Below are positions 4,995-37,264 of a stretch of 37,264 nucleotides of DNA, one piece after another. The position numbers were made by a program, and so were the translations under genes. The stretch comes from a virus (taxonomy: Duplodnaviria > Heunggongvirae > Uroviricota > Caudoviricetes), in the IMG/VR virus record IMGVR_UViG_2778261068_000007, positions 1 through 37,264 of that record. One strand, written 5' to 3'. Positions within the stretch are counted from its first letter, which is position 1; every line of letters begins with the position of its first letter. A model generated the notes under the pieces. The model was given only the letters and a program-made list of their open reading frames with translations. It was not told where the DNA came from and searched no databases.

Positions 4995-7817
4995 GTGGCA
5001 ACGGAGTACATCAGAGACTGGCAACAACCACGCCATGCAGTCGGTCGCGAGGGAACGGGGGAGCCTGTCCGCCCCTCCCTTCTTTCTTCCTGGCTGGATG
5101 CCTACCGGGCAGAGAACGAGCGCCGCCAGGAAATGGCTGATGCGGCGTTCTCCGCTGCACCACTGGGCAATCTGATTAATAAAAGCCTGGACGCACAGGA
5201 AAAACAGGACAAAGCCATCACACTGGCAAGAGAAGCCAGAAAGCAGGCACGCGGTGCGGTGGATGAAGCCATGGCCTCGCTGCGTCTGCTGCCGTCCTAT
5301 CTGCGTGATCCGCTTATCCGCCATCTCTCTTTCCTGCGCAAAAAACAGGAATCTGGCCGCCAGAAAGGCAAAAATAGCTGGCAGGCTGAACGCTACGCGC
5401 GCGGAAACCTGCGCAAAATATTCGAACGTCTGGACTGCACCGACCGTCGCTGGCTGACTCCGGGTTATCGCTCCCTTGCCGGACGTGAACGTCTGGACGA
5501 TTTGCTGTACTTGCCACAGCTCAACAAGCACCAGATACAGACGCTGGCCGTCATGACAGCGGCAATGTTCAGCAGCACCTTCGAAAAACTCTGCGATGAC
5601 TTTGGCGCGACCGACGGCGAGCTGACCATGGATATAACGCTGAAGGCGTATCAGATGCTGGCCCGCATGGCGTTACATCTGCACACGGTGCCGCCGCATT
5701 ATGACGCACTGACAACAGACAAAGACCGGAAGAACGAACCGGACACGGAACTGCTGCCGGGTGCAATCCTCCGCCTGACCTGTGCGGACTGGTGGAAACG
5801 CAAATTGTGGCTTTTACGTTGCGAATGGAGAGAGGAACAACTCCGCGCTGCCTGTCTGGTTTCCAGAAAAACATCGCCCTATCTGAGTCAGGACGCATTA
5901 AGTGAATTTCGCGCACAGCGCGAGAAAACACGCGATTTCCTGAAAAGTTTCATGCTGGAAAATGAAGACGGGTTCACGATTGATCTCGAGACGGTGTATT
6001 ACGCGGGAGTAAGTAACCCGGTCCACCGTAAGGCAGAAATGATGGCCACCATGAAAGGGCTGGAACTTCTGGCCGAAGCCCGTGGCGACAAAGCGGTGTT
6101 TCTGACTGTCACCTGCCCGTCAAAATACCACGCAACAACGGAGAACGGTCATCCGAACCCCAAATGGAACGGGGCCACCATGCGCGACTCCAGCGATTAC
6201 CTGGTTAACACGTTTTTTGCGGCGGTCCGCAAAAAACTGAACCGCGACGGTCTGCGCTGGTATGGCATCCGCACGGTGGAGCCTCACCATGACGGCACCG
6301 TGCACTGGCATATGATGGTCTTTGCACACCCGGACGAGATTGAAACCATCGTGTCCCACGTCTGCGATATTGCCATTCAGGAAGACCGCCACGAGCTGGG
6401 CGATGACATAACTCCGCGTTTTAAGGCGGAGTACGTAGACGGCTCAAAAGGCACGCCAACCAGCTACATCGCCACCTACATCGGAAAGAACCTGGACAGC
6501 CGCGCCGTGGATGGCATCGACCCGAAAACGGGCAAGCCACGCGTTGACCACGAAACCGGAAAATCAATGGCAGAGAGCGTGGAACGCGCCATCGGCTGGG
6601 CGCGCCTTCACCGGGTCCGCCAGTTCCAGTTCTTTGGTATCCCTTCCCGTCAGGTGTGGCGTGAACTGCGTCGCCTTGCCAGCCAGATGGCACGCAACCC
6701 GGAAGGCCCGCAACGGCTGAAGGATGACGCAATGGACGCGGTTCTTGCTGCCGCTGATGCCGGATGTTTTGCCACCTACATAGAGAAACAGGGTGGCGTA
6801 CTTGTTCCACGCAAGGATTACCTGATTCGCACCGCCTACGACCTCGCAGAAGAGCTGAACGATTACGGCGAGCAAAGCGTACAGATTTACGGGATCTGGT
6901 CGCCACAAATCGGGGAATCTTCCCGCGTGTGCACGCACCCGGATAACTGGAAGCTGGTAAGACGTAAACCGGAAGCGGAAGACAGCGCCCGCGAAAATGG
7001 TTTTGACCTTCAGGGCGGCCCTGCCGCCCCTTGGACTCGTGGCAATAACTGTCCCCGTGTACAGGAAACGGACAACAACGGGACAGAACAGCCGGAAGAA
7101 CGGCCAGCACCGTGGCCGCAGCTTCCTGACGGCGTTGAAGTGAATGAATGGATGCGCTCACTGAAACGGCACGAACGCCGGGCGCTGATGCGTTCGCTGC
7201 GTGACAAACAGGCAAAAAACAGCAGTGATGAAATGCAGAGCTGGACACAGAGCCGCAAACAGCAGCGGCCTTTGCCTGATAACCACGAATTACTCGCTAA
7301 AGAATGGCGGGAGTCTGCCGAATCTCTCGGCCTGCATATCGGTGAACAACAGATGCTGCACCTGTTACGGGGCGGCAGTCTGTACGTTGACGGCAGCATC
7401 ATTGCGCCGCAGGGATATGAAATTGTACGTAAACCGGATACCCGACCGGACAGCCGAATCACGCGACTTTGGCAGCGCCTGAGTCGTAATCACAGCGTAA
7501 ACAGCACGGAAATCCGCCATAACCCGGTTTCCAGCTATCTGAAACAGCTCGGGGCATCAGACCCCGAAGCCGCCGCACGCCTGGCATCCACAATTCAGCA
7601 GGACCAGAACACCATGAAAACTCCCGTTACCGTGCTTTCTGACATGCTGCGCGCCATCCGTGACGCAGAGCACGCACAAAGATTCAATGAAACCACTGAA
7701 CGCGTCCGCCGCAAAGCAGATCTGTTGCAGGGTGGACTAACCAGTGAAAACAAAAAACAGACAAAAACGGGATTCACAAATCCCGTAAATGAGCAAAAAA
7801 CGCGCCGCGATATATGA
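4995..7817 (+). CDS. A: Rolling-circle replication initiator, P2 gpA-like
   Basis: 940-aa ORF with HWHMMVFAHPDE (HUH-type motif) and YHATTENGHPNPKWNG...TFFAAVRKKL...GLRWYGIRTVEPHHDGTVHWH; GTG start at 4995 with RBS ggag 8 nt upstream (alternative ATG at 5133); longer than remembered P2 A (about 760 aa). Confidence 0.9.
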   Translation: MATEYIRDWQQPRHAVGREGTGEPVRPSLLSSWLDAYRAENERRQEMADAAFSAAPLGNLINKSLDAQEKQDKAITLAREARKQARGAVDEAMASLRLLPSYLRDPLIRHLSFLRKKQESGRQKGKNSWQAERYARGNLRKIFERLDCTDRRWLTPGYRSLAGRERLDDLLYLPQLNKHQIQTLAVMTAAMFSSTFEKLCDDFGATDGELTMDITLKAYQMLARMALHLHTVPPHYDALTTDKDRKNEPDTELLPGAILRLTCADWWKRKLWLLRCEWREEQLRAACLVSRKTSPYLSQDALSEFRAQREKTRDFLKSFMLENEDGFTIDLETVYYAGVSNPVHRKAEMMATMKGLELLAEARGDKAVFLTVTCPSKYHATTENGHPNPKWNGATMRDSSDYLVNTFFAAVRKKLNRDGLRWYGIRTVEPHHDGTVHWHMMVFAHPDEIETIVSHVCDIAIQEDRHELGDDITPRFKAEYVDGSKGTPTSYIATYIGKNLDSRAVDGIDPKTGKPRVDHETGKSMAESVERAIGWARLHRVRQFQFFGIPSRQVWRELRRLASQMARNPEGPQRLKDDAMDAVLAAADAGCFATYIEKQGGVLVPRKDYLIRTAYDLAEELNDYGEQSVQIYGIWSPQIGESSRVCTHPDNWKLVRRKPEAEDSARENGFDLQGGPAAPWTRGNNCPRVQETDNNGTEQPEERPAPWPQLPDGVEVNEWMRSLKRHERRALMRSLRDKQAKNSSDEMQSWTQSRKQQRPLPDNHELLAKEWRESAESLGLHIGEQQMLHLLRGGSLYVDGSIIAPQGYEIVRKPDTRPDSRITRLWQRLSRNHSVNSTEIRHNPVSSYLKQLGASDPEAAARLASTIQQDQNTMKTPVTVLSDMLRAIRDAEHAQRFNETTERVRRKADLLQGGLTSENKKQTKTGFTNPVNEQKTRRDI

Positions 7818-7865
7818 AGCGCGCACAAAACAGGCAAAAGCGGGATTTAAAAATCCCGTAAACGA
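7762..7865. repeat. Two 31-bp direct repeats, each holding a 7-bp-stem hairpin (cgggatt-N4-aatcccg)
   Basis: caaaaacgggattcacaaatcccgtaaatga (7762-7792) and caaaagcgggatttaaaaatcccgtaaacga (7835-7865) bracket the A stop codon (7815-7817) and a GC-rich near-palindrome cgcgccgcgatatatgaagcgcgc. Confidence 0.6.
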
Positions 7866-7893
7866 TTAATTAATCAACATAAGGAAAATCGAC

Positions 7894-8853
7894 ATGAAAA
7901 TTTGCATCGACGACGGCTCCACCAACATCAAGCTGGCATGGACTGAGAACGGCGAACGCCGCAACGCCATCAGCCCGAACAGCTTCAAGTCGGAATGGTC
8001 TGCGCCGTTCGGTGGCACACAGCCCGCGAACTACATGCTTGATGGCGTGCGCTATGGTTTTGATCCGGTCAGCGATCGCTTTGTCCAGACGACCGACACG
8101 CAATACCAGTACAGCGATGTGAATGTCATTGCCATTCATCACGCGCTGGTCAAATCAGGTATCACACCACAGGAAGTGGACGTGGTTGTCACTCTGCCAC
8201 TGAGCGAGTATTTCGATACAAACGCACAGCCGGACATGGCCAACATCAACCGCAAAAAAGCGAATGTCCTGCGCCCTGTGGAGTACCAGAACGGTGAAGC
8301 ATTCACTATCCGCAACGTGCGGGTTATGCCTGAATCCATTCCGGCTGGCTTTAAGGCACTGGCTGACATGAGTCCGTTTGAATCCCTGCTGATTGTGGAT
8401 TTAGGCGGAACAACGCTGGATGTGGCAAAGGTTCAGGGGCAACTGGCAGGCATCAGCCAGGTGTTTTGCGATCCACACGTAGGCGTTTCCCTGATGGCTG
8501 ATGCCGTGCTGTCGGTGATGGCCACTAACGGTATGCGTACCAGTCACCACATCGCCAATACCATTATTGAGCACCGTCACGATGAAGCCTGGCTACGCCA
8601 GCACATTCACAATGACGCGCATTACAACAGCCTGATGGCGGTTATTCGTGAAAAGGAGGAGACACTAAAACAACGCGTGATCCGCGCACTCGCGGGCTTT
8701 TCGGGTTACGGGCGGGTGCTGGTTGTCGGTGGAGGAGCGGAGATTGTGGCACCCGCAGTCCGTGAAATCTATGGAGTCAATGCGAATTTCATCACAGACG
8801 GGGTGCCACAGTTTGCTCTGGTTAACGGTCTGTACGCTATGGATAAGGAGTAA
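7894..8853 (+). CDS. parM: Actin-like segregation ATPase, ParM/StbA family
   Basis: N-terminus MKICIDDGSTNIKLAW closely matches remembered R1 ParM (MLVFIDDGSTNIKLQW); further shared blocks ISPNSFK.EW, YSDVNV.A.HHAL, LPL.E, VDLGGTT; RBS aaggaaaa upstream. Confidence 0.8.
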   Translation: MKICIDDGSTNIKLAWTENGERRNAISPNSFKSEWSAPFGGTQPANYMLDGVRYGFDPVSDRFVQTTDTQYQYSDVNVIAIHHALVKSGITPQEVDVVVTLPLSEYFDTNAQPDMANINRKKANVLRPVEYQNGEAFTIRNVRVMPESIPAGFKALADMSPFESLLIVDLGGTTLDVAKVQGQLAGISQVFCDPHVGVSLMADAVLSVMATNGMRTSHHIANTIIEHRHDEAWLRQHIHNDAHYNSLMAVIREKEETLKQRVIRALAGFSGYGRVLVVGGGAEIVAPAVREIYGVNANFITDGVPQFALVNGLYAMDKE

Positions 8854-8859
8854 CCCTCC

Positions 8860-9171
8860 ATGGCGACATTAACCAGAAGAATAAGTTTCTATCTGAAGCC
8901 AGCCGCCGTCAAGAACGAAGGCAAAGCATGCGCCTGGCTGGACAGCCTTACACCAGAAGCCCGCAAAAGCGGCCAACGCGTGGCTTTTCTGGCCGGGCTG
9001 GCACTTCTGAAAATGAATCCGGCAGAGGCTTACCGACTGGCTGCATGGGCTGATGATGAGGCGTTATCAGTGACACAAACCAGGGCAGAACGCCACATGT
9101 TACAGCCAGCGCCCACCGCACAGATAACCAGTCAGATAGCTGGAAATATCCGGGCGTTATTTCCCGAATAA
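8860..9171 (+). CDS. parR: ParR/StbB-like centromere-binding adaptor
   Basis: 103 aa immediately downstream of parM with RBS aaggag; RRISFYLKP...AWLDSLTPEARKSGQRVAFLAGLALL...IRALFPE parallels remembered ParR (RTIAFKLNP...DTLDSIPQGERSRLNRAALTAGLALY...LRSLFPKE). Confidence 0.65.
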   Translation: MATLTRRISFYLKPAAVKNEGKACAWLDSLTPEARKSGQRVAFLAGLALLKMNPAEAYRLAAWADDEALSVTQTRAERHMLQPAPTAQITSQIAGNIRALFPE

Positions 9172-9234
9172 CACAACATCAGGGCGCATCCGCCCTGATG
9201 ACTTTAATCCGGGAACATAAACAAGGGGGACACA

Positions 9235-9576
9235 ATGCAACACATTGACAGAGAAAAAGCGCAGCGACTGATTGAGCGGATGGAAGCGCTGGCGAAAGAA
9301 GAAAATGTCAACATCCAAAAAATAGCAGAATGTGGCCAGATAGTTCTTCGTCGTGAAAAAGACATCAAGCAACTGATGTCTGGCGAAACCAGCAAAACAC
9401 GGATTCCAGGCGAGAAAACGATTTATTGTAGCTTCTGCAATAAATCCCAGTACGAAGTCACAAAGGTGATTGCCGGACCGTCTGTTTACATCTGCAATGA
9501 GTGCGTGGATTTGTGCAATGAAATTATCAGGAGAGAAGCGACTGACCATGAAGAAGCGCGGAGATGCAACGATTAA
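9235..9576 (+). CDS. ClpX N-terminal zinc-binding-domain (ZBD)-only protein
   Basis: C-terminal half [40 protein letters not shown] is near-identical in pattern to the remembered ClpX N-domain ([40 protein letters not shown]), including the C4 zinc ligands; no AAA+ module follows. Confidence 0.7.
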
Positions 9577-21877: not shown

Positions 21878-24103
21878 ATGAGCACCACAACACGAAAATT
21901 TAAAACCGTTATCACCGATACGGGTGCAAAAAAATTAGCACAGGCAGCCGCACCAGATGGCAAACCCGTCCGCCTGACACATATGGCCGTGGGTGACGGC
22001 GGCGGTACTTTACCCACGCCAGACAGTAAGCAGACCCGTCTCGTGCATGAGGTGTGGCGACATACCGTTAATCGCGTCTTCCTGGACGCAACACATCAGA
22101 ACCGCATTATTGCGGAGCTGGTTATTCCTCCAGAAACGGGCGGATTCTGGATCCGGGAAATTGGTGTGTTTGATGAGCACGGCGATTTAATCGCGGTGGG
22201 CAATACTGCCGAAAGTTACAAGCCAGCCGTTGCCGAAGGGTCCGGGCGTGCGCAAACATTTCGCACCATCCTGACCGTATCCAGCACGGCCACCGTGGCG
22301 CTTACCGTGGATAACACCATGGTGATGGCCACAGTGGATTACGTGGATGACAAACTAAAAGAGCATGAACAGTCACGACGTCACCCGGATGCCTCGCTGA
22401 CCGCAAAAGGCTTTACTCAGTTAAGCAGTGCGACCAACAGCACGTCTGAAGCACTGGCCGCAACGCCGAAAGCGGTAAAGGCTGCATATGACCTTGCTAA
22501 CAGGAAATATACCGCACAGGATGCCACCACAGAGCAAAAAGGCCTTGTCCAGCTCAGTAGCGCCACTAACAGCGTGTCTGAAACGATGGCGGCAACGCCG
22601 AAAGCGGTAAAGGCCGCCTATGACCTTGCTAACGGGAAATATACTGCACAGGACGCCACCACAGCGCGAAAAGGCCTTGTCCAGCTCAGTAGTGCAACCA
22701 ACAGCCCGTCTGAAACGCTGGCTGCGACGCCAAAAGCTGTTAAGACGGTAATGGATGAAACGAACAAGAAAGCGCCGCTGTCGAGTCCGGCACTCACCGG
22801 AACGCCAACCGCACCAACTGCGCCAAAGGGTACTAACAATACTCAGATAGCAAACACGGCGTTCGTTATGGCCGCGATTGCCGCACTTGTAGACTCATCA
22901 CCTGACGCACTGAATACGCTGAACGAGCTGGCTGCGGCACTGGGCAATGACCCGAACTTTGCGACCACTATGACCAACGCGCTTGCGGGCAAGCAGCCGA
23001 AAGACGCCACCCTGACGGCGCTGGCCGGGCTTGCTACTGCGGCAGACAGGTTTCCGTATTTTACAGGGAATGACACCGCCAGCCTGGCAACTCTGACAAA
23101 AGTCGGGCGGGATATTCTGGCTAAAGCGACCGTTGCCGCCGTTATCGAATACCTCGGTTTGCAGGAAACGGTAGAGTTAGCGGCAGGGGCGGTACCAGCA
23201 ACACGCAAAGTAAACGGGCGTGCGTTAACCAGTGATATAAATGTTACTTCGCAGGATATTTTTAATGGGCAGAGCATTTCTATTGGTGCTAATCAAAACT
23301 TAAATGATTATATGACTCCTGGTCTGTATCATCAGTCGCTCAACGTTAATACAAGCTCTGCATTAAACTACCCGGAGAATGGCGCCGGAAATTTAATTGT
23401 GTTAAAAAATGCTGGCGTAAAACAAATTTATCATGTGTATAACTCCTCAAGAGTGTGGTCACGTAGCAAATATTCATCAGAACCATGGACACCGTGGGCA
23501 CGAGAATATAATTCACAAAGCAAACCGACCCCGGCAGAGCTCGCAGTATTGGCATTAGCTGGCGGTAGCATGTCAGGGAGTATTAAATTTATAAATGATG
23601 CCTTCCTGATTTGGGAAAGGAACACCGACTGGGCGAAAATCGGATTTAAAAATGATTCAGATTCCGATACTGACTCATACCTGTGGTTTGAAACTGGTGA
23701 TAATGGCAATGAATATTTCAAATGGCGTATCAGGGCTGGAAGCGCAACAAAAGACTTGATGTTTTTGAAGTCTGATGCGCTCAGAGTCACTGGTCAGGTT
23801 ATACCATCTAATTACGGTAATTTTGATTCCCGTTATCAGGCTAAAAATACCGCGTCCAAAGCGGCGAATGGCTGGCATAAAGATGCCTCTACGGGAGTTA
23901 TTACACAGTGGGGATATATTTCTAACGCTGGAGCGGGATTAACATTTCCGGTGGCTTTTCCATCCGCCTGCGCAAGCATAACAATTACTAACGCACACGG
24001 GCGATTTGACTACAGTATTGCTGTTAACTCACTATCCAGAACCGGGGCAAAATTTAACAGTGAAGGTAATGGCAATATGTACTGGACAGCTATAGGTTAC
24101 TAA
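21878..24103 (+). CDS. H: Tail fibre protein, P2 gpH-like, with invertible C-terminal variable part
   Basis: 741 aa; conserved N-terminal region, internal 43-aa tandem repeats, AT-rich C-terminal third beginning at the gix-like crossover site (23142-23167). Confidence 0.9.
22409..22760 (+). repeat. About 2.7 tandem copies of a 129-bp repeat inside the tail fibre gene
   Basis: Encodes [44 protein letters not shown] three times; DNA copies nearly identical. Confidence 0.6.
23142..23167. repeat. Left gix/hix-like inversion crossover site
   Basis: ttatcgaatacctcggtttgcaggaa; inverted match to the 26020-26045 site and similar to remembered Mu gix (TTCCTGTAAACCGAGGTTTTGGATAA). Confidence 0.7.
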
Positions 24104-27221: not shown

Positions 27222-30059
27222 TTACTCTTTATCATAAAAGCTGCCACGCCCGGCACGGGTACGCCGCTCCAGTTCTGCCCTGACCATTTCGCCGACCAGT
27301 TTCGCCAGTTCGCGGGGATTCTGCGTAACAACGTTATGCAGATGGACATGAATTTCACCACCAAATCCGGGGGTCGCAGCCTCCCGGCTGCGGGAAGATG
27401 CGGAAACGGGCGCAACTGGCGCACGTGCGGCCTCCACGACCGGACGGGAGCTTGCTGCAACAACAGGGGGCAGCGCCGGATATAACGGAGCCGGGGGCGC
27501 GGGAGTGATATTGATTGCAGGAAGAGCCTTGTTGCTCTGCGCAACCTTTCGCTCCTGCCACTCCCCACGAACAGCAAGCGCACGGGGCAAATTCTTAAAG
27601 ACAATATCACCGGGGCCGATACGCTTTTTCGTCTCATCAACCAGCTTGCCTGTGTTATCTGCAATTTTGCTGAGCCTGCGCAGCGTGCCAGTGTTGTTGT
27701 CCGTGAGCGGCTTGTTGTCTTTAGGCTTATCGCCTCCGGTCCCTGTTTCCGCAGACTTCGGTGGATTGATTTTTGCCAGGTCCCCCTGAAGCAAAGCAAC
27801 CTTGTCCTGAAGAATGGCCGCACGCTGCGCGTCTTCGATTTTCTTTCTCGCCCTTTCCGCTTCATCTGGAAGGACACCAAGTTTTTCCAGTATCCATGCC
27901 AGCGTATCCAGCAGCATTTTTGCAGGCGTCAGGACAAGCTGTAACGCACCGCCAAGAACGTTGCCGAATACCTCGCCAGCACTGGTGTATTTATCCAGCG
28001 TTTCCTTGCTGGATTCCATCGGTGACAGCAGCGATGTAAACCAGTTAAAGACCTGAATCACGCCATCACGAACCAGTTCGAAAACAGGGCCAAACCGTTC
28101 AAAGGTTTCGCGTAACGGGGCCAGCCGCTCCATAATCCCGCTGAACACCCCGGAAAAAAATGCCCTGATTGGGTCCCAGTATTTCCAGATGAGAACGGCA
28201 GCTCCGGCAAGCGCAGCTACGATAAGACCGACCGGGCTGAACAACGCCCCGATAGCGCCTCCCAGTAAAGAGACGGAACCCGACGCCATTCCCCACAACG
28301 CTGGCAGGACCCTGACAGCATTCATTGATCCGGTCAGGAGGGAAAAACCAAGACGCAGTTTTGCCAGCGGGCCAGCAAGCACCCCAAGAGCCAGTGACAA
28401 CGAGCCAACCGTTGCAGTCATTGCCAGCAACGCACCGCCTGCAATCAGTAGCTGGCGCGTCAGTACCGGATGGGCCTGCGCCAGCGAGGTGATTTTTTCA
28501 AGCACCCGCGTGAGCCACTGCGTGACAGAACGCAGCGGACCGTCAACCAGATCACTGATGCGAATACGAAGACCTTCCCATGCGCTGTCGAGATTTTTCA
28601 GGTCCCCATCAAGATTATCGGCCATTACTTTTGCGACGCGATCGGCCTCTCCCCTTGCCCCCTGCAATTCTCTGGTCAGTTTTTGCAGCTCTCCTGAACC
28701 AGCCGCCGCAACAAGCGTCTGCAAACCAACGAACGCCTCTTCTCCGGCGATGTCCTTGAAGAAGGAGACCTGGTCCACCTGTCCGTATTTTTGTGTCGCC
28801 TTATAGAGATCAAGCAGCACATCCTCCATCGGGCGCATTTTGCCTCTGGCGTCAGCAACTGACACCCCCAGCTCTTTCAGTGCATCAGCCGCAGCTTTTG
28901 GCGGTGATGCAAGGCGGGACAGACTTGCGCGCATGGCCGTACCAGCATCGCTTCCGCGAAGACCATTATTGGCAAGCATCCCGGCCATGGCCGCCGCTTC
29001 TTCAAGACTGATACCAAGTTTTGCGGCAACCGGACCGGTATACTTCATGGTTTCGCCCAGCGCGCGTAAATCAGTATTGGTCCGGGTGAATGCCGCTGTC
29101 AGCGTATCGCCAACCCGGTCCATTTGATCGGCTGTCAGGTTGAACTGTGTGAGGATATTGGAGCCTATATCAGCCGTCTCGCCGAGTTCGACGCCACCTG
29201 CCAGCGCCATATTAAGAACACCGGGCAATGCGGCCTGAATGGCCTGCGGAGTAAAACCAGCCATTGCCAGAAAGCTCTGCCCACTGGCGGCATCACTCGC
29301 AGTAAACTGTGTTTCAGAGCCAAGTTTTAACGCCTGCTCACGCAGCGCCTTAAACTGCGGGCTGTTTTTGTCGATTCGCGTCAGTGCCTGAACGCGGGAC
29401 ATCTCTTTCCCGAACCCGATCGCAGGCTGCAAAAAACGCCCGGCAGCATAGCCGCCAGCCGCTGCCGCACCAATTGCCAGCGCACCACCTGTTTTCAGTT
29501 TTCCCGCAGTTTCCTGCGCGCGCGAATACCGCTCACGCGCCCGCGTTACACGCGCAAGCGCCTGCCGCTCGCGTTCAAGCTGGTTGTTGTATTGTTCGGT
29601 GCGTCTGATGGCCTGCTGAATGGTGTTATCGCTGCCTGTCAGGGAAATGCCGTGGCGTTTCAGCTCTCCGCCAAGCTCCCGCATTTTCTGAATTTCCCGC
29701 GTGCGCGATTCATTCAGGCGTTCAAGCCGGGTGCTTAACTGCTGCATCAGCTTTTGTTGTTTTTCGCTGAGCACAGTACCCGTGCGTTGTAACTGATGAA
29801 GGGCGTTAAGCTGGCGTCGTGCTTTCACGATGCCAGCATCCGCTTTACTGACAGCATCGCGGGCGCGCTCAAATGAACGCGCCTGACGCTCGAGATTTTT
29901 GATTGCCCCCTGTGTTCGCTGGATGGAGTCACCAAGCTGTCCCATCAGGCGGCGGGCGTTTTCGGCTGGCCGGGTCAGCCTGTCAACAGCACTGAAGGCG
30001 ACCCGGATGTCAAGAGTCTTCATTGTCTGCATTCCCGCTGCGAAGTGCCGCCCGCTCAC
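27222..30059 (-). CDS. T: Tail tape measure protein, P2 gpT-like
   Basis: 945-aa Ala/Gly-rich protein with coiled-coil N-terminal region, between the E/E' chaperones and U. Confidence 0.85.
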   Translation of the reverse strand: MSGRHFAAGMQTMKTLDIRVAFSAVDRLTRPAENARRLMGQLGDSIQRTQGAIKNLERQARSFERARDAVSKADAGIVKARRQLNALHQLQRTGTVLSEKQQKLMQQLSTRLERLNESRTREIQKMRELGGELKRHGISLTGSDNTIQQAIRRTEQYNNQLERERQALARVTRARERYSRAQETAGKLKTGGALAIGAAAAGGYAAGRFLQPAIGFGKEMSRVQALTRIDKNSPQFKALREQALKLGSETQFTASDAASGQSFLAMAGFTPQAIQAALPGVLNMALAGGVELGETADIGSNILTQFNLTADQMDRVGDTLTAAFTRTNTDLRALGETMKYTGPVAAKLGISLEEAAAMAGMLANNGLRGSDAGTAMRASLSRLASPPKAAADALKELGVSVADARGKMRPMEDVLLDLYKATQKYGQVDQVSFFKDIAGEEAFVGLQTLVAAAGSGELQKLTRELQGARGEADRVAKVMADNLDGDLKNLDSAWEGLRIRISDLVDGPLRSVTQWLTRVLEKITSLAQAHPVLTRQLLIAGGALLAMTATVGSLSLALGVLAGPLAKLRLGFSLLTGSMNAVRVLPALWGMASGSVSLLGGAIGALFSPVGLIVAALAGAAVLIWKYWDPIRAFFSGVFSGIMERLAPLRETFERFGPVFELVRDGVIQVFNWFTSLLSPMESSKETLDKYTSAGEVFGNVLGGALQLVLTPAKMLLDTLAWILEKLGVLPDEAERARKKIEDAQRAAILQDKVALLQGDLAKINPPKSAETGTGGDKPKDNKPLTDNNTGTLRRLSKIADNTGKLVDETKKRIGPGDIVFKNLPRALAVRGEWQERKVAQSNKALPAINITPAPPAPLYPALPPVVAASSRPVVEAARAPVAPVSASSRSREAATPGFGGEIHVHLHNVVTQNPRELAKLVGEMVRAELERRTRAGRGSFYDKE

Positions 30060-33773: not shown

Positions 33774-35276
33774 ATGAACAAAAAGCTGTATTTATTCCCA
33801 GACTCAAACATTTTTCTACAATGCAAGGCCTTGACGCAGGTAAATTTTTCCGAGATTACTGCTTGTGATGAAGTATGTATCATTATTACAAGGCCCATTC
33901 AGCAAGAGATTGACCGCCAGAAAGGGCAAGGTAATTCCCGCCTATCCAAAAAAGCAAGGAAGGCTGCTAGCCTATTTAATCAAGTAGTTGATTCAACTGA
34001 CATGACTCTTGTTATTCGTGAACGCTCGCCGCGAGTTTTTCTTACCATGGATCTAAGCCTGAAACCATGTGAACAGTTATCTGAACAATTGGATTATCAG
34101 GAGGCCGACGATCGTTTTGTTGGTATTGCGGCAGGGTATTGCGCTGACGATCCAGATTCGGAGGTGGCAATCATTACCAATGATAGCGGTCCACGTTTTT
34201 CAGCAATAAAACATAATATAATCTGCTATAAAGTGCCTTCTTCATGGTTGCTTCCTGCTGAGCCAGATGAAAAGGATAAACAAATTAAATTGCTGGAAGC
34301 TAAGCTGAAGCAATTCACTCAGTCTATGCCCGATTTCAGCATTAAAGCAGCCGATGACGAGCAATTAAATATTGTACTTCCTTATTATACAGCTTTATCT
34401 GAATATGAAGTTGATAATTTGCTTTGTCAACTAACGGATGCATTCCCATTGGTTACAAACTTTGACAATGAACAAACTACCCCACAATCACTAGAAAAAA
34501 TCATCAAGTCATTTAGTCAACAGGAGTATTTCCCTGTATCAGCAGATGATATTTCTCTTTATAAAGAAAAACATTATCCACTTTGGAAAAAGCAGTGTGA
34601 AGAAATACTGAAAAACTGTCATACTCATATTAATCCGAAGGCAATAAAATACCCGCTGTCGTTTTTATTACAAAACACAGGTTATACTATCGCTGAACGT
34701 GCTGTGGTAACATTTACAGCAAAAGGAGATTTTCGTCTGTGTGGATTTAATTGGGAGATAATGGAAGAGCTGACTGAAAGCAAAAGGATTGACCTACCTT
34801 CAGCCCCTACCGCACCCAAAGGAAAATGGCGTAGTGTATGTGGCGTAACAGAAAGAATGCCTTACGCTTGGGGAGCTTTGGAAACACCGCTATCCAGTAT
34901 AATTTCAAAAGAAATTGGTCCTTTGTTATCTCTTACTCCAACAGAAAGGGATAAAAACGATTTTTATTATAAAGAAAAGAGAAATGTGCCAGTTCAAGTT
35001 GTATCGCTGGAATGCGAAGAGTGGCGTCATCAAGTCAAAGAAGAAATATTCCCGTTGTTCGTATATACAGCCAACAAACCAAAGAAAGTGAATGGTGCAA
35101 TTGAGGTGAGAGTTGATGCAAATAACCTTACCAATCCGGTCATTAAAACATTTAAATTAAAAATAACTATAGAAGAACATAGTGCATTTTCAACCATAAC
35201 AGAAATGGTGCAGACATACATTCAAGAGCAGAAGAAAAGACAGAAAAGTTCTATTAGCGCACAAATCAAAACATGA
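33774..35276 (+). CDS. PIN-domain protein with a roughly 350-aa uncharacterised C-terminal region
   Basis: N-terminal 150 aa carries the PIN acidic residues in order (LFPDSNIF, QQEID, EADDRF, IITNDSG); gene and flanks are AT-rich unlike the phage backbone; inserted between D and ogr. Confidence 0.6.
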   Translation: MNKKLYLFPDSNIFLQCKALTQVNFSEITACDEVCIIITRPIQQEIDRQKGQGNSRLSKKARKAASLFNQVVDSTDMTLVIRERSPRVFLTMDLSLKPCEQLSEQLDYQEADDRFVGIAAGYCADDPDSEVAIITNDSGPRFSAIKHNIICYKVPSSWLLPAEPDEKDKQIKLLEAKLKQFTQSMPDFSIKAADDEQLNIVLPYYTALSEYEVDNLLCQLTDAFPLVTNFDNEQTTPQSLEKIIKSFSQQEYFPVSADDISLYKEKHYPLWKKQCEEILKNCHTHINPKAIKYPLSFLLQNTGYTIAERAVVTFTAKGDFRLCGFNWEIMEELTESKRIDLPSAPTAPKGKWRSVCGVTERMPYAWGALETPLSSIISKEIGPLLSLTPTERDKNDFYYKEKRNVPVQVVSLECEEWRHQVKEEIFPLFVYTANKPKKVNGAIEVRVDANNLTNPVIKTFKLKITIEEHSAFSTITEMVQTYIQEQKKRQKSSISAQIKT

Positions 35277-36330: not shown

Positions 36331-36528
36331 ATGATGCAAAATATACGATGCAAAAATTGCTATAAATTACTTGCCCGCGCCTCATTTCACCACATTGAAA
36401 TAAAATGTCCGCGTTGCAAAACCCTTAACCAGGTAACGAGAGCCATCGAGCCCCCCACACACATGAGGAGCTATGACCGTGGGGATCGCAATCCAGCACA
36501 AAACAGCCCATACCCCGGAATACACTAA
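36331..36528 (+). CDS. com: Mu Com-like zinc-finger protein (candidate translational activator)
   Basis: MMQNIRCKNCYKLLARASFHHIEIKCPRCKTLNQV parallels remembered Mu Com (MKSIRCKNCNKLLFKADSFDHIEIRCPRCKRHIIM); RBS aagagg 8 nt upstream; 3' end overlaps the methyltransferase start by 56 nt. Confidence 0.7.
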   Translation: MMQNIRCKNCYKLLARASFHHIEIKCPRCKTLNQVTRAIEPPTHMRSYDRGDRNPAQNSPYPGIH

Positions 36529-37264
36529 GATTTACCAGACTGACAATGCCACGCTCTGCTGTGGGAATGCACTGGAAATATTGCCGCTGATTGAGCCAGA
36601 AAGCATTGATGCCTTAATCACTGATCCGCCTTACAGCTCAGGGGCAACACACAAGGCCGGACGCACCAACCAGGGCAGCCACGCAAAATATCTGAACGGC
36701 GAGAGCCTTCACCGCTTTGATGGATTTGCGGGTGAAAATATGGATGCCCGTTCGTGGGCTTACTGGACACAATTATGGATGGCACAGGCATACCGCGCAG
36801 TCAGGCCGGGCGGTTATGCCCTGGTGTTTACTGACTGGCGGCAACTGCCTGCTTTAACCGATGCGTTTCAGGCCAGCGGCTTTACATGGCGTGGAATCAT
36901 TGCGTGGAACAAAGGGAGGGGGTCACGAACACCCCATACCGGGTATTTCCGGCATCAGTGCGAATACATCGTCTGGGGCAGTAAAGGCCATTTAGGTAAA
37001 TCGCCTTCGGGACCGTTCGACGGCTGCATGACGTTCCCGGTTATCCCGTCAAAGAAACTGCATCCGACCGGAAAACCAGAAGAGTTAATGGCGGAGCTGG
37101 TCAGGACTGCGAATAGAGGCGGAACAGTCCTTGATCCTTTTATGGGGTCAGGGACAACGGGTATTGCAGCACTGAAAGCAGGACGCAAATTTATTGGTAT
37201 AGAAACCAGTGATCATTATTTTGATGTAGCAACACAACGGCTCAAAACGGCGATCGAACCATAA
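36473..37264 (+). CDS. DNA methyltransferase, N6-adenine or N4-cytosine, beta-class
   Basis: Catalytic motif ITDPPYSS precedes the AdoMet-binding motif DPFMGSGTT (beta-class order); start overlaps the end of the Com-like gene; alternative GTG start at 36479. Confidence 0.85.
   Translation: MTVGIAIQHKTAHTPEYTKIYQTDNATLCCGNALEILPLIEPESIDALITDPPYSSGATHKAGRTNQGSHAKYLNGESLHRFDGFAGENMDARSWAYWTQLWMAQAYRAVRPGGYALVFTDWRQLPALTDAFQASGFTWRGIIAWNKGRGSRTPHTGYFRHQCEYIVWGSKGHLGKSPSGPFDGCMTFPVIPSKKLHPTGKPEELMAELVRTANRGGTVLDPFMGSGTTGIAALKAGRKFIGIETSDHYFDVATQRLKTAIEP

Follow-up and report, generated by a model that had tools for sequence, protein, structure and literature searches.

In this study, we analysed a stretch of 37,264 nucleotides (IMG/VR record IMGVR_UViG_2778261068_000007, positions 1 to 37,264; referred to below as the window), which by its sequence belongs to the P88-type (Xuanwuvirus) temperate phages of the P2 family and is present as a prophage with the gene order gpA, parM, parR. 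A pair of palindrome-bearing repeats straddles the end of the replication initiator gene gpA, directly upstream of parM. The 115 bp that hold them (7751-7865) are probably parC, the centromere of a type II ParMRC cassette that this P88-like prophage would carry as cargo. We favour this reading because of the position of the repeats, their co-inheritance with parMR, the conservation of motif and spacing in distant relatives, and an iteron array found at the same place in one relative.

The two repeat units are 42 nt long, start 73 nt apart and are identical at 36 of 42 positions (86%); their 31-bp cores, at 7762-7792 and 7835-7865, agree at 27 of 31 positions when counted directly. The first-pass annotation had described two near-identical 31-bp units, each with a cgggatt/aatcccg palindrome, that flank the gpA stop codon and a GC-rich near-palindrome, and this observation was confirmed. 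The elements of the region are, in order:

7751-7792: repeat unit 1 (42 nt), the A-tract leader CAAAAAACAGACAAAAA followed by palindrome H1; it overlaps the final gpA codons
7768-7785: palindrome H1, 18 bp, CGGGATTCACAAATCCCG (CGGGATT-CACA-AATCCCG), a proposed ParR site with two inverted half-sites
7801-7823: central GC inverted repeat, CGCGC-N13-GCGCG (arms 7801-7805 and 7819-7823), containing the gpA TGA at 7815-7817
7824-7865: repeat unit 2 (42 nt), the A-tract leader CACAAAACAGGCAAAAG followed by palindrome H2; intergenic
7841-7858: palindrome H2, 18 bp, CGGGATTTAAAAATCCCG (CGGGATT-TAAA-AATCCCG), also a proposed ParR site
7864-7875: perfect 12-bp palindrome GATTAATTAATC, containing the conserved ATTAATCAA, between H2 and the parM ribosome-binding site

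The repeats stop 29 bp short of the parM ATG, and H2 lies 35-53 bp upstream of it, where it possibly overlaps the -35 region of a parMR promoter. When the region 7400-8300 was resampled 200 times with a first-order Markov model, the best repeat match was 30 of 42 (mean 23.7), compared with the 36 of 42 observed. No further close copy of the palindrome unit was found elsewhere in the 37-kb window, and when viral contigs were searched for the palindrome alone, about 40 unrelated single matches were obtained, in line with a rough chance estimate for its 14 specified bases. The sole other place in the window with a short-range direct repeat of at least 34 of 42 is at about 22.4-22.5 kb (offset of about 130 nt), inside the open reading frame (ORF) 21878-24103, which is taken as a tail-fibre gene.

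The central GC inverted repeat is centred at 7812, no more than 1 bp from the midpoint between H1 and H2 (7813). Its fold was not better than that of shuffled sequence (z-score of -0.2), and it is variable among relatives, one lineage having CGTGC..GCACG and many carrying a change in the left arm alone. We propose that it serves as a core or spacer that ParR does not bind. The 12-bp palindrome occurs in several relatives as the symmetric variant GGTTAATTAACC, and Hafnia and Plesiomonas retain its ATTAATCAA core; it may represent a -10 region, form a small stem or act as an operator. Weak promoter candidates were seen by direct reading, namely TTTAAA or TTCAGA in the H2 loop and ATTAAT at 7869-7874. 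The A-tracts of 7745-7870 are phased at about 10.5 bp, significantly so against mononucleotide shuffles and with extra power at a period of 8. These shuffles also destroy A-runs and are therefore a weak control, so that we take the phasing as suggestive only.

The three genes that bear on the proposed site are:

4995-7817: gpA, replication initiator, stop codon TGA at 7815-7817 (Pfam Phage_GPA, E = 3e-128)
7894-8853, plus strand: parM, actin-like segregation ATPase (Pfam StbA_N, E = 7e-82, together with the ParM C-terminal domain)
8860-9171, plus strand: parR (StbB family), ribbon-helix-helix adaptor and proposed binder of H1 and H2 (PF10784, E = 2e-24)

Phage P88, Citrobacter phage Shae_phiSM and other relatives match the region 7600-9200 with 91-94% identity. 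ParM matched the structure of R1 ParM (1mwk) with E = 4e-92. Used as a lone phmmer query against the PDB, the window ParR gave no match; a family profile was required, and that of the window ParR with seven relatives reached the structure of pB171 ParR (2JD3) with E = 4e-16. The Pfam and PDB matches thus bear out the genes that had been called from the sequence at the outset (an initiator gene A, parM and a ParR-like gene).

The repeats, parM and parR form a single inherited unit: at least three different upstream contexts contain them together, and the repeats are missing when other cargo follows the same gpA. In prophages of E. coli ETEC4085 and AR_0013, the 3' part of gpA is 93-97% identical to that of the window, homology to the window is lost at about 7714-7732, and the DNA beyond carries alternative cargo (an AAA ATPase with an S8 peptidase; a Dam methylase with an AAA ATPase) and neither the repeats nor parMR. 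The initiator gpA does not need the repeats. The stretch at about 7714-7750, at the 3' end of gpA, is a cargo junction, and prophages with other cargo also differ in the C-terminal tail of gpA.

The left context was surveyed in about 160 related loci, and four of them (L074, L174, L112 and L038) have a different one. Homology to the window begins exactly at the unit-1 A-tract in L074 and L174 and runs on through parMR; the upstream gene there is a 159-aa ORF, which itself follows a distant gpA (31% identical). More generally, the gpA that accompanies the repeats elsewhere can be as little as 31-36% identical, with other ORFs in between. Homology in L112 starts about 10 bp later than the unit-1 A-tract and likewise extends through parMR; here a 145-aa ORF terminates within H1, in a frame other than that of gpA, so that the peptide encoded by gpA across H1 is not what is conserved. 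The different left context extends up to H2 in L038, and the Hafnia equivalent of H1 lies inside an unrelated 167-aa ORF. Because the repeats persist behind unrelated upstream genes, we regard the repeat pair as the left edge of the parMR cassette; judged from these comparisons, the gpA frame merely runs into this edge and ends inside the cassette.

More distant prophages, from Hafnia and Plesiomonas, carry a ParM that is 62% identical in the same slot after gpA. Their GGG-N10-CCC motifs are placed almost as in the window (positions are relative to the parM ATG):

Window: -125/-52, spacing 73 bp
Hafnia: -128/-55, spacing 73 bp
Plesiomonas: -131/-59, spacing 72 bp

Inner stem bases are lost in these relatives (e.g., GGGACAACAAAAACCC in Plesiomonas), the outer triplets being retained, and the hairpin energies there are -1 to -3.2 kcal/mol, near those of shuffled sequence. 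Within the P88 clade, inner stem pairs are often broken on one side (T7773C is an example), and none of 106 distinct P88-like sequences shows compensation in H1 or H2; the sole compensatory change concerns the GC repeat, in a single lineage. The conserved outer triplets, the fixed spacing and the separation of the two sites by about seven helical turns point to a dyad-symmetric protein site rather than to a structural hairpin. The units had been called hairpins in the first-pass annotation, and the term does fit the window, where H1 and H2 fold as single-stranded DNA with -8.1 and -6.7 kcal/mol (z-scores of -4.9 and -4.5); it is probably incidental, as this stability is lost in relatives while the outer GGG/CCC triplets stay.

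The window, Hafnia and Plesiomonas also have in common the ParR beta-strand TRR(I/V)SFYL. Lineages whose ParR strand reads NRKISFYL or LRKVSFYL (instead of the TRRISFYL of the window), which include Serratia, Enterobacter and metagenomic prophage loci, have ParMR in the same slot downstream of gpA, with GGGA-type units and a GC-rich central inverted repeat, as in the window. They differ in their arrangements, which are built from GGGAACGAAAT units: three loci (L136, L217 and L220) have one large inverted repeat of 20-30 nt around a GC hairpin, and one metagenomic locus (L226, ParM 55% identical) has a direct array of nine 11-bp units. This array, at 172-272 of that locus and upstream of parM, comprises 9.2 tandem units ATGGGAACGAA, of which the last two form one arm of a 20-nt inverted repeat; judged by its sequence, it is an iteron centromere of the textbook kind, in the homologous position. 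The window and these lineages share the left element CAAAAACGGGA, which ties the array to the window units. A scan of the genome contig collection with ParM returned three near-identical loci only.

Across hundreds of loci, ParM is intact and 95-100% identical. ParR comes in two allelic types (in related loci such as L021, L035 and L045) that are about 50% identical overall, with a hypervariable linker, and that both keep the N-terminal beta-strand TRRISFYLKP and the C-terminal tail (NI..FPE). We considered the two types as a natural experiment on specificity and rejected it as uninformative, the DNA-contacting strand being identical in both.

These observations suggest the following mechanism: dimers of ParR would bind H1 and H2 as duplex palindromes, each offering two inverted half-sites WWWWACGGGATT, and perhaps contact the A-tract leaders as well; since H1 and H2 are 73 bp, or about seven helical turns, apart, both would be presented on one face of the helix, on either side of a core that ParR leaves unrecognised; ParM filaments would be caught by their ends when the ParR-DNA complex binds them via the conserved C-terminal tail of ParR, giving partition activity; and, by analogy with plasmid R1, the same complex would repress transcription of parMR.

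The parC of R1 is 159 bp long, with a 39-bp promoter core between two blocks of five 11-bp iterons each; approximately one ParR dimer binds per iteron, and from the iterons ParR also represses the promoter (PMC2241845). Centromeres of type II systems may be continuous or split (PMC5016525). The window site resembles that of R1 in lying directly upstream of parM-parR, in its two-part repeat layout around a central core, and in its A-rich units with G/C triplets phased at about one helical turn (with the weak control noted above for the A-tracts of the window); A-rich, CCC-containing iterons were seen directly in an R1-type plasmid locus. The window ParM is about 46% identical to an R1-type plasmid ParM, and the two ParR proteins belong to the same Pfam family and have a similar N-terminal strand. 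However, the phage site has two 42-nt units with inverted half-sites over 115 bp, instead of ten direct 11-bp iterons over 159 bp. Moreover, unlike R1 with its recognisable core promoter, it has no detected consensus promoter, its left unit lies within the coding end of a replication gene, and its host element is an integrating prophage. We therefore file it as a variant of parC, agreeing with R1 in position, layout and composition and departing from it in its few units, its inverted half-sites, the lack of a consensus promoter and the overlap with a gene.

Some of these differences weigh against a parC at this place. Only two strong units are present here, compared with ten in R1, and Tandem Repeats Finder reported no iteron array in the window. 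A scan of 7400-8100 for the sigma-70 consensus found no promoter, so that the analogy with iterons that flank a promoter is not demonstrated. The region 7300-8100 was found in 1372 of 5426 complete E. coli genomes, and 1532 of its 1534 places are chromosomal (the other 2 are on plasmids), a location in which a plasmid centromere would have no evident use. Each of the three inverted repeats is followed by a T-run on the minus strand. To this list may be added that both ParR types adjoin identical palindromes, although this is uninformative rather than supportive.

The first-pass annotation had also noted that origins of P2-family phages lie in or near gene A; the GenBank record of P2 places the nick site at nt 29892, in gene A, within GCGCCTCGGAGTCCTGTCAATAAC. 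The annotation had left two options for the repeats, a P2-type origin or a parC centromere/operator, holding that the sequence alone could not separate them. Comparison of sequences does separate them, supporting the centromere/operator and not the origin. An alignment of the gpA proteins places the P2 nick segment at residues 671-688 of the window gpA, and this feature is:

7022-7051, inside gpA: P2 nick-sequence homologue TGCCGCCCCTTGGACTCGTGGCAATAACTG, 24/30 bases matching P2, equivalent nick position about 7033

When the P2 nick sequence (GCGCCTCG/GAGTCCTGTCAATAAC) was searched for, the best match in the window was this same segment (6 mismatches in 30), not one in 7751-7865; 50 shuffles of the entire window gave nothing better than 9 mismatches. 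The 24/30 match far exceeds the 31% protein identity of the P2 and window gpA. The nick motif, CCTYGGA..TG.CAATAACTG, is kept in five gpA lineages and was found in the gpA of L074, Hafnia, Plesiomonas and Serratia; that of L074 is only 31% identical to the window gpA, yet the motif is present. As a conserved homologue of the nick sequence sits inside gpA, the origin is placed about 730 bp upstream of the repeats, which share no sequence with the P2 nick site. Both the P2 origin and the window repeats lie in the 3' part of gene A; the repeats, however, are inherited independently of gpA. The repeats as the origin itself were thus rejected on the basis of the nick-site homologue and of their inheritance. 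That they form part of a P2-type origin, or an accessory site for gpA binding, would fit their overlap with the gpA 3' end, but the same gpA occurs without repeats and the repeats occur with a distant gpA, so that such a role is extremely unlikely.

The main residual alternative is that the palindromes are an operator only, bound by ParR or another regulator and autoregulating parMR, with no centromere role, as might be expected of a decaying or repurposed cassette. The nearly exclusive chromosomal location, the two strong sites in place of ten and the operator-like position of H2 would all fit this explanation. Nevertheless, a ParM that is so well conserved and intact, together with a ParR that keeps the tail contacting ParM, indicates a working machine, which needs a DNA anchor; the same sites in R1 serve both roles (PMC2241845); and one complete P88-like genome has been deposited as a 34.5-kb circular replicon. 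We therefore regard an operator without centromere function as unlikely. The T-runs on the minus strand raise a further possibility, namely that the three inverted repeats are tandem rho-independent terminators that shield gene A from antisense transcription via the cargo. A consensus scan flags both palindromes on that strand, which reads ACGGGATTTGTGAATCCCGT-TTTTGTCTGT and CGGGATTTTTAAATCCCG-CTTTTGCCTG, and by direct reading TTTTTTGCTC follows the central GC repeat. However, the presumed genes from 7866 to about 10180 (parM, parR, the gene for a zf-ClpX protein and two more ORFs) are all on the plus strand, no identified minus-strand gene ends here, and terminators so placed would not protect parMR itself. 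In addition, shuffled sequences give about as many terminator-like sites (1.8 vs 2), and the equivalents in Hafnia and Plesiomonas lack both a stable stem and a minus-strand T-run, yet motif and spacing persist there. On the plus strand, the consensus scan found no rho-independent terminator at the repeats. Taken together, a terminator function appears very unlikely.

The dyads could also act in the RNA, as elements of a gpA-parM read-through transcript of the plus strand that control its processing, stability or translation. The 161-nt fold of 7740-7900 is more stable than those of shuffles (z-score of -4.2), the common variants C7857T and C7803T are compatible with G-U pairing in the plus-strand RNA, a C-G pair of the GC repeat has become U-A in one lineage, and the change from GATTAATTAATC to GGTTAATTAACC is symmetric. 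Against this, H1 and H2 show no compensatory change, the frequent T7773C breaks a plus-strand pair, the stems are not maintained in Hafnia or Plesiomonas, the sole compensatory event is that of one lineage, and no Rfam family was matched. Control at the RNA level is accordingly a highly improbable explanation of the dyads.

Turning back to parC, the kind of site proposed here is an ordinary one, and its detailed form is not previously described: a search of the literature on P88, Xuanwuvirus and P2-like ParM found no functional study and no description of such a ParMRC system. If the reading is true, it would define the centromere for the ParMRC system of an integrating P2-like prophage that is present in about 25% of complete E. 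coli genomes. Having two units with inverted half-sites, not long direct arrays, the site would provide a minimal natural substrate for the assembly of ParR rings. For annotation, the partition site would be separated from the origin at 7022-7051, and the 3' end of gpA would be marked as a cargo junction.

The reading also prompts one to ask why a phage integrated in the chromosome should retain an intact plasmid-segregation machine. P88 itself is known to integrate (PMC5285337). A more novel but unlikely reading is that P88-like prophages have a facultative episomal (phage-plasmid) state, in which a compact palindromic parC fused to the 3' end of the initiator gene would couple replication by gpA to segregation by ParMR; ParR bound at H1 could then also modulate gpA expression. 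In the record NZ_CP148288.1 (L221), the whole P88-like genome, including the integrase, is deposited as the 34.5-kb circular molecule mentioned above and labelled a 'plasmid', which hints at an episomal state.

A few other features of the window were noted. The integrase gene is at:

1234-2361: integrase

A repressor-like gene is likewise in the window. Directly 3' of parR, a small ORF (9235-9576) encodes a protein with a ClpX-type C4 zinc finger; in the P88 record this ORF is labelled inconsistently, as carboxylate-amine ligase and as ClpX. Further on, past the gpD-like tail gene, the window holds a 500-aa PIN-domain protein (33774-35276) and a DNA methylase (36473-37264) whose gene runs past the window end; these two may be further cargo or flanking host DNA.

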